NCBI GenBank assembly: GCA_947626595.1
Contig: CANQST010000005.1
Span: 1-49,322 of the forward strand
Direction of reading: 5' to 3'
DNA: 49,322 nucleotides
Source of the DNA: an uncultured Bacilli bacterium
GTDB taxonomy: Bacteria > Bacillota_I > Bacilli_A > RF39 > UBA660
The notes beneath the pieces were generated by a model. It did no database searches and was not told the DNA's origin. It worked only from the letters and a program-made list of their open reading frames with translations. Shown piece after piece: positions 13,999-14,269 of the stretch. Within the stretch, counting starts at the first letter, position 1. Each line of letters starts with the position of its first letter. The translations under genes were made by a program, and so were the position numbers.

Positions 13999-14199
13999 AG
14001 CAAGATTTTCTTGCATAAATTAAAAAGGGAACATTTAGTATGGGGCTGAATGTCCACCCTGTGTCGATATTTCACGACCTAAAGGGGTTCTATTCAACCT
14101 GGACCCCCTTTAGACCTTAATAGCTATTATTATAGCTAATAATAGTCCAAATAAGACACAAATGTATCTAAGAATTTTTATTATGAAAATTCTTTTTTT
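13999..14199 (+). ncRNA. Putative type I antitoxin antisense RNA, copy 1 (3' end uncertain)
   Basis: Own promoter; hairpins GCAAGA/TCTTGC, ACATTTAGT/GCTGAATGT, GTCG/CGAC, CTAAAGGGG/CCCCTTTAG; terminator-like AAGAATTTT/AAAATTCTT + T tract at 14170-14199; antisense to the 30-aa peptide gene. Confidence 0.6.
14021..14060 (-). terminator. Putative terminator of the peptide mRNA
   Basis: Minus strand AGGG(TG)GACATT...AATGTTCCCT followed by TTTT. Confidence 0.5.
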
Positions 14200-14202
14200 C
14201 AT
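14110..14202 (-). CDS. 30-aa hydrophobic peptide, putative type I toxin (MKKRIFIIKILRYICVLFGLLLAIIIAIKV)
   Basis: Hand-translated, below the ORF-track cutoff; strong SD AAAGGAGTGA; own promoter; basic N-terminus plus a single TM-length hydrophobic helix; covered by a convergent antisense transcription unit. Confidence 0.75.
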   Translation of the reverse strand: MKKRIFIIKILRYICVLFGLLLAIIIAIKV

Positions 14203-14269
14203 TTGCGCTTCACTCCTTTCTTACTTAAAAAGAGCAAACATCCATTAAACTAAATTATTCCCTAAAAAT

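Follow-up and report, generated by a model that had tools for sequence, protein, structure and literature searches.

A minus-strand transcript of about 240 nt in the window (by which we mean the whole stretch of 49,322 nucleotides analysed here, from an uncultured member of the Bacilli) very probably belongs to a type I toxin–antitoxin module, and the reading that we favour, with a probability of roughly 0.6 that leans on structure predictions, is that this module works through a bsrG-like switch: a fold-back of the mRNA would loosen the hairpin that sequesters its Shine-Dalgarno (SD) region, and an antisense RNA would close that hairpin again. A structured mRNA would encode a predicted membrane peptide toxin, while a predicted convergent antisense RNA would cover the 3' UTR. 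Once the 3' UTR is complete, two long-range helices, P1 and P2, both shown by covariation, would form, and P2 would use its G-rich inner arm to capture the lower 3–6 nt of the anti-SD strand, with a shortened SD stem as the predicted effect. By analogy with bsrG/SR4, the antisense RNA would then pair with the 3' UTR and strip away P1 and P2, so that the full-length SD stem could re-form, and the same pairing would offer RNase III a duplex of about 110 bp. The window copy, for its part, is predicted to be shifted strongly to the closed state. Judged from its sequence, the locus is a member of a so far uncatalogued family with multiple copies.

Predicted toxin mRNA and antisense RNA in the window

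The putative toxin gene is preceded on the minus strand by a sense promoter recognised by its sequence pattern (14270-14298), with a -35 box TTGCAT (14298-14293), a 17-nt spacer and a -10 box TATACT (14275-14270), and the predicted +1 at 14263 is the exact first base of P1. The predicted toxin mRNA (14022-14263, minus strand), whose ends are deduced from the sequence, would finish at a U-run (14026-14022) that follows a 3' hairpin. It contains a 30-aa ORF (14110-14202, minus strand), a likely type I toxin on the grounds of its translation, hydropathy and selection across the family, with a cationic start, a hydrophobic rest and a best 19-aa hydropathy of 2.78.

A first-pass annotation of this DNA had quoted six segments as the strands of three pairings in this mRNA, all of which lie where it placed them, and had proposed folding of the minus transcript as a check. 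When folded, the 244-nt transcript reaches -81.3 kcal/mol (z -7.73), a stability equalled by 0 of 200 shuffles. Two of the pairings stand as described. The hairpin sequestering the SD is predicted as 12 bp between the anti-SD strand (14238-14227) and the SD region GAAAGGAGUGAA (14220-14209), with pair probabilities of 0.65–1.0, and the pairing of the 5' end with the 3' end, namely P1 (5' arm a1, 14263-14249; 3' arm b1, 14039-14026), is part of the minimum free energy (MFE) structure at pair probabilities of 0.75–1.0, except for one A that shifts the register; its inner 5 pairs covary. As for the third pairing, UGGAUGUU:GACAUUCA (14244-14237:14054-14047), its complementarity is real and even extends to the 14 bp of P2 (14244-14231:14060-14047, 6 of them G-U), in which 12 of 14 pairs covary, but it lies outside the MFE, which holds the SD hairpin together with P1, and it is incompatible with that hairpin, bases 14238-14237 being common to UGGAUGUU:GACAUUCA and the anti-SD strand. 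The 3' part of the 5' arm of P2 (a2, 14231-14244) doubles as anti-SD, and the 3' arm (b2, 14047-14060) is a purine-rich, SD-like strand that pairs with it. Since P2 extends into the anti-SD, it competes with the SD hairpin, which is already dissolved in the window copy when the first 6 bp of P2 are forced. With P2 forced, the MFE is -76.0 instead of -81.3 and the ensemble energy -80.9 instead of -84.5, the SD hairpin being favoured by 3.6–4.1 kcal/mol in ensemble energy; in this alternative fold, 6 nt of the ORF become the new partner of the 3' half of the SD. Pairing of the SD to the 5' UTR amounts to 0.98 in the window copy.

A convergent antisense gene over the 3' UTR, which had no place in that earlier account, is indicated on the plus strand by a promoter pattern with an extended TG (TTGTAA-17-TACTAT, 13964-13992). 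A consensus promoter scan of the window gave no plus-strand promoter inside the unit, and the same scan also overlooked this antisense promoter at the 3' side. The predicted antisense RNA (13999-14117, plus strand; about 115 nt, z -4.36) would fold into four hairpins, and its complementarity spans the stop codon along with the entire 3' UTR. Its likely terminator is the stop-codon hairpin predicted at 14079-14113 (plus strand), a symmetric AAAGGGG..CCCCUUU structure that here comes without the usual long U-tract. A gene with an RNase III domain is present in the same genome. Just after the U-run, the motif ATGCAA (window 14000-14014, alignment columns 359-375) is invariant in 45/45 aligned units selected with the motif; it makes up the 5' hairpin predicted for the antisense RNA and could also serve as an operator just below its promoter.

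A multi-copy family and its remnants

A profile search of the same genome returned 18 matches, of which 11 are near full length and 7 lack the 5' part. One homologue matches 70/151 genomes of the same taxonomic family, and a class-wide sample, in which one genome was left unscored, gave 10/27 matching genomes from this family and 0/222 from 28 others. In another search, the sole match outside the family (G048, 46 nt) contained no unit. A pattern scan of named genomes yielded 121 stretches, and the matches listed (80) come mostly from uncultured Bacilli, Tenericutes or Erysipelotrichaceae in gut samples. They include Ca. Ventrenecus, a genus unplaced in the NCBI taxonomy that we take to belong to the order RF39. 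For the comparisons below, 228 profile matches in 194 loci were reduced to 171 distinct units, 132 of which were kept for having a P1 of -11 kcal/mol or lower and an SD-led hydrophobic ORF (39 dropped). After one over-long unit had been removed, 64 representatives below 85% identity were retained; these are mutually related and preselected for P1 and the ORF.

Genes around 26 loci are unrelated from one locus to the next; they are housekeeping genes, with Panacea, Fic, ToxN or methylase genes appearing occasionally. Units at L035, L036, L064 and L051 adjoin tRNA genes (tRNA matches and, in one case, a tRNA-like stretch), and tandem arrays of 2–4 adjoining units of different sequence subfamilies occur at L044, L064, L055, L013 and L159, a mixture that suggests specificities that do not cross-react. 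Rfam returned only a tRNA for the whole window, tRNAs only for ten homologous loci, and six chance-level matches, far under their cut-offs, for the locus at E up to 10. Viral contigs (searched with one exact pattern) and plasmid and phage collections gave no match to the unit, and literature searches, whose scope did not extend to the content and supplement of T1TAdb, found no account of the present toxin–antitoxin family.

The ORFs of the 64 representatives encode 23–37 aa, with a best 19-aa hydropathy of at least 2.41 and a net charge of 0 to +7, and a pN/pS of 0.31 over 789 non-independent pairs indicates that the family ORF is under purifying selection. Together with the conserved antisense promoter and the covarying helices described below, this upholds the first-pass call of a toxin mRNA. 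Fst peptides carry the motif P-D/S/T-x-G, which neither the window peptide nor the consensus of 47 peptides contains. For these 47 peptides Pfam and NCBIfam gave no match below E 0.04; the ESM Atlas contributed a single unnamed cluster at 0.76 and no lead to function, and a tblastn search of the same genome with the peptide gave mostly low-complexity noise. A protein profile search retrieved 72 proteins, and all 20 that were inspected belong to the same peptide family; none of the 7 database proteins looked up carries a functional name. Gene callers appear to misread the peptide ORF, because many of these database entries run past its TGA stop; in P0011, P0012, P0020, P0021 and others, the peptide is extended with TGA read as W. 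Given that TGA, TAG and TAA alternate at the end of the ORF among homologues, such extended proteins are probably gene-calling artefacts. Four peptide motifs were absent from the 8 supplementary files of PMC2887945 that were searched.

Both promoters are conserved. The sense pattern is found in 54/64 representatives (wrong-strand control, 1) and the antisense pattern in 58/62, with the extended TG in 56/62 (wrong-strand control, 0). The predicted antisense RNA has a median length of 112 nt (range 99–126, 61 units). The hairpin that follows the stop codon is preceded by an A-tract, as required for a U-tailed antisense terminator, in 57/64 representatives, the window copy not among them, and in 41/64 its antisense-strand version is the more stable one. 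Its 5' arm is also matched by a2, the letters of both co-changing between subfamilies, and the cognate pairing is stronger than the mean non-cognate one in 56/64; the window copy is an exception, its post-stop hairpin having no match to its own 5' UTR. This covariation could reflect a transcriptional hand-off or an attenuator-like choice within the antisense RNA.

Among incomplete units, those that retain only the antisense part outnumber the toxin-only ones. In the same genome, 10/10 matches to the 5' half keep the 3' half and 8/18 matches to the 3' half have no 5'-half match; these 8 include a divergent full copy, and the 3' profile has the greater sensitivity. In relatives, 17/74 3' matches lack a 5' partner, with overlapping loci counted twice, and conversely 5/62 5' matches lack a 3' partner, 3 of the 5 lying at an edge. 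Among 30 loci chosen by their 5' half, 32/37 matches are complete, 3 are near an edge, 1 is toxin-only and 1 lies on the antisense strand. The window itself contains such a remnant, copy B, a toxin gene with its 5' end cut off (14331-14531, minus strand, 89% identity), whose antisense promoter (14332-14360, plus strand, by sequence pattern) and antisense RNA (about 14367-14486, plus strand) are intact; copy B thus reads as an orphan antitoxin, and its antisense RNA is predicted to form a duplex of -160.9 with the copy-A mRNA, compared with -203.4 for the cognate one. Two loci in relatives, G075:C12 and G169:C28, show a promoter and an intact ORF with neither 3' arms nor an antisense promoter. 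The SD is predicted to be much more closed in the former (11.2, against 5.0–6.2 in close relatives) and unchanged in the latter (8.3, against 7.6–8.3 in relatives), and either locus may be an assembly error. At L034 (G000:C1, about 54690-54950) the ORF and the antisense part are intact, while the 5' UTR and SD are apparently deleted.

A back-to-back promoter block of about 130 bp, made up of the antisense promoter of one unit and the toxin promoter of the next, occurs at 14255-14390 and again at 16785-16920 (83% identity), and in the second block the toxin-type promoter (16828-16800) would drive an RNA ligase ORF and not a toxin. It looks as if toxin copy B had lost its 5' part to a cassette of about 2.3 kb inserted in its place. 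The minus strand at 14550-16780 encodes the RNA ligase (PF09414) and an AAA_21 ATPase with AbiLi as its nearest likeness (E 1e-35), with a downstream partner ORF split over two frames (14841-14710 and 14786-14550), and forms a small defence-like island. A third sRNA-like unit at 16896-17006 (plus strand, z -3.63) starts from the same promoter and has a GCAAG hairpin at its 5' end and a terminator with a U-tail. Its RNA shows no specific pairing with the copy-A mRNA, and it is probably a divergent orphan antitoxin.

Fold-back and accessibility of the Shine-Dalgarno region

Covariation among homologues, which the first-pass annotation had named as a check, is strong for the long-range helices and weak for the SD hairpin. 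Across 45 aligned units, 91.9% of the cells of 19 pairs in P1 and P2 are paired (the outer P1 columns, misregistered in the alignment, being excluded), and 16/19 pairs show two-sided changes; 0/500 shuffles score as high and slid registers reach 34–42%. On a tree built from unpaired columns, 41/46 double changes on a single branch end in a canonical pair. Covariation recurs at the two P2 pairs adjoining the anti-SD (columns 81-313 and 82-312), and the register of P2 into the anti-SD is maintained across different subfamilies. The probability of P1 exceeds 0.8 in 62/64 representatives, units that were preselected on P1. The G-rich inner arm of P2 also closes the 3' hairpin of the mRNA itself, which is a second possible reason for its conservation.

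When the 3' UTR was forced to be unpaired, mimicking antisense binding, the mean cost of opening the SD in the 64 representatives rose from 6.95 to 9.17 kcal/mol, these costs being equilibrium predictions on related sequences. The cost went up by more than 1 kcal/mol in 43/64 and down by more than 1 in 1/64; no rise above 1 kcal/mol was seen in 21/64. An earlier pass on 44 units gave the same direction of the masking effect. Substitution of the inner P2 arm alone raised the SD cost in 58/63, and substitution of a neutral spacer did so in 0/63. Nascent forms have an SD that is harder to open in 40–43 of the 64 representatives and easier in 8–12. By these predictions the SD is most accessible in the complete mRNA, whereas nascent, trimmed and antisense-bound forms are closed. 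Since opening the SD still costs a mean of 7 kcal/mol in full-length mRNAs, “on” would merely mean less closed. In the window copy, opening of the SD is predicted to cost slightly less once the 3' UTR is masked (5.4 to 4.9) and more in the trimmed and nascent forms (6.2–7.0). The window copy is a divergent member of the family, probably a more firmly closed one.

These predictions bear directly on the first-pass proposal of two layers of silencing, which, if it worked as in hok and aapA, would leave the full-length mRNA doubly silenced until 3' trimming activated it. The MFE of the window copy does hold both P1 and the SD hairpin, with the SD tied to the 5' UTR as given above, but the SD is paired with the 3' UTR in 0/64 representatives, removal of b1 is near neutral (0/64 rise, 1 falls), and removal of b1 and b2 makes the SD harder to open in 50/64 and easier in 1. 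Moreover, the inner long-range helix P2 overlaps the anti-SD by at least 3 nt in 46/64; the SD hairpin and the fold-back are therefore alternatives and not additive layers. With the antisense gene sitting over the very region that trimming would remove, and with two loci devoid of the 3' UTR keeping an intact ORF, double silencing is very improbable. A more serious rival, rather unlikely in our judgement, is a pair of the txpA/RatA or bsrE/SR5 type, in which RNase III decay alone would provide control, the fold-back would merely stabilise the mRNA, and the overlap of P2 with the anti-SD would be a by-product of the G/C-rich arms that the 3' terminator hairpin and the SD hairpin each require. 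It draws on the conservation of the local 3' hairpin with a U-run no more than 3 nt away (61/64), on the window copy and the 21/64 representatives without a predicted switch, and on the statement in PMC6562991 that RatA and SR5 cause no SD change. Repeated covariation at columns 81-313 and 82-312, the anti-SD register kept across subfamilies and the specificity of the inner-arm substitution speak against it.

The nature of the peptide and of the repeated ends has to be considered as well. A harmless regulator of the MgtR kind, a small membrane peptide under antisense control, would agree with the lack of toxin family matches and with a marginal MgtR match in 2/47 peptides; the best E of 0.049 is, however, at chance level, neighbouring genes differ from locus to locus, and dispersed and tandem copies with an excess of antitoxin-only remnants fit addiction modules better, which makes this idea improbable. 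Hardly credible is the view that the complementary ends are terminal inverted repeats in the DNA of a small non-autonomous mobile element: the unit is indeed a dispersed repeat at unrelated sites with inverted-repeat ends, yet G-U pairs are kept on one strand (pair 76-318 is G-U in 32/45 aligned units, and P2 is more stable on the mRNA strand than on the opposite one in 57/64 representatives), both promoters are conserved despite lying outside the repeats, and the ORF is under purifying selection. The bsrG-like switch can, finally, be extended, tentatively, to a lineage-wide family in which a toxin mRNA would permit its own translation only once it is complete. The 3' UTR would carry a decoy SD that pulls the anti-SD away from the real SD; because the antitoxin gene would be the reverse strand of this activator, binding, trimming and deletion would all leave the toxin off. 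A covarying motif of 7–10 nt recurs in the 5' UTR, in the 3' arm and in each of the two arms of the antitoxin terminator, and would in this extension form a programmed co-transcriptional strand-exchange relay.

Relation to known type I systems

The closest likeness is to bsrG/SR4 of Bacillus subtilis, which combines a small hydrophobic toxin ORF, a convergent antitoxin over the 3' end and a long 5'-3' helix, nt 1-35 of bsrG being described as pairing with nt 232-262 (PMC3834814). Binding of SR4 is stated there to lengthen the SD stem from 4 to 8 bp; a longer SD stem once the antitoxin removes the 3' arm is thus shown for bsrG and predicted here in 43/64 representatives, not including the window copy. 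The antitoxin overlap of 100–140 bp given for the B. subtilis systems (PMC6562991) compares with about 112 nt (99–126) predicted here. Differences are also apparent: bsrG is described as having, beyond P1, a terminator of its own, SL4, whereas in the present unit the 3' hairpin of the mRNA uses the same two arms as P1/P2, an SD-like run in the 3' arm pairs directly with the anti-SD, and the 5' UTR is matched by the arm of the antitoxin terminator as well; the unit further occurs in many chromosomal copies, none of which was matched in the phage, viral and plasmid collections searched. The unit would accordingly resemble bsrG/SR4 in its mode of action, homology having been judged by Pfam, NCBIfam and Rfam only, with no family match.

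With txpA/RatA, bsrE/SR5 and the C. difficile RCd8-10 systems, the unit shares a tail-to-tail layout, an SD held in a stem and a long duplex for RNase III (PMC6562991; PMC5961336), but in those accounts RatA and SR5 are reported to leave the SD structure unchanged, whereas here a covarying helix competes with the anti-SD. Long-distance 5'-3' pairing, an SD hairpin in the nascent mRNA and many chromosomal copies are reminiscent of aapA/IsoA and hok/Sok, and a 30-aa toxin (AapA3) is also described for aapA/IsoA. In these two systems, however, the SD is masked by the 3' end, trimming of that end activates the mRNA (PMC6733600; PMC3834814), and the antitoxin has its target in the 5' part or the ORF; SD cover, trimming effect and antitoxin site are all predicted to be opposite here. 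Fst/RNAII of the par locus likewise has convergent transcripts and a small hydrophobic toxin, but RNAII is described as acting through the direct repeats DRa/DRb, with a shared terminator (PMC4147584). Here the repeats are inverted, the antisense RNA overlaps the entire 3' UTR, and no direct repeat of at least 10 nt was found within the unit.

In the review literature consulted here, SR4 is the antitoxin named as closing a distant SD by undoing a 5'-3' helix, and the family offers well over 100 natural variants with compensatory changes that support an SR4-like design. The predicted logic inverts the rule of hok and aapA, by which fold-back silences and 3' trimming activates. The short sequence variants provide material for tests of antitoxin specificity, and an unannotated, multi-copy, likely type I toxin–antitoxin family is added to the gut Bacilli with reduced genomes.
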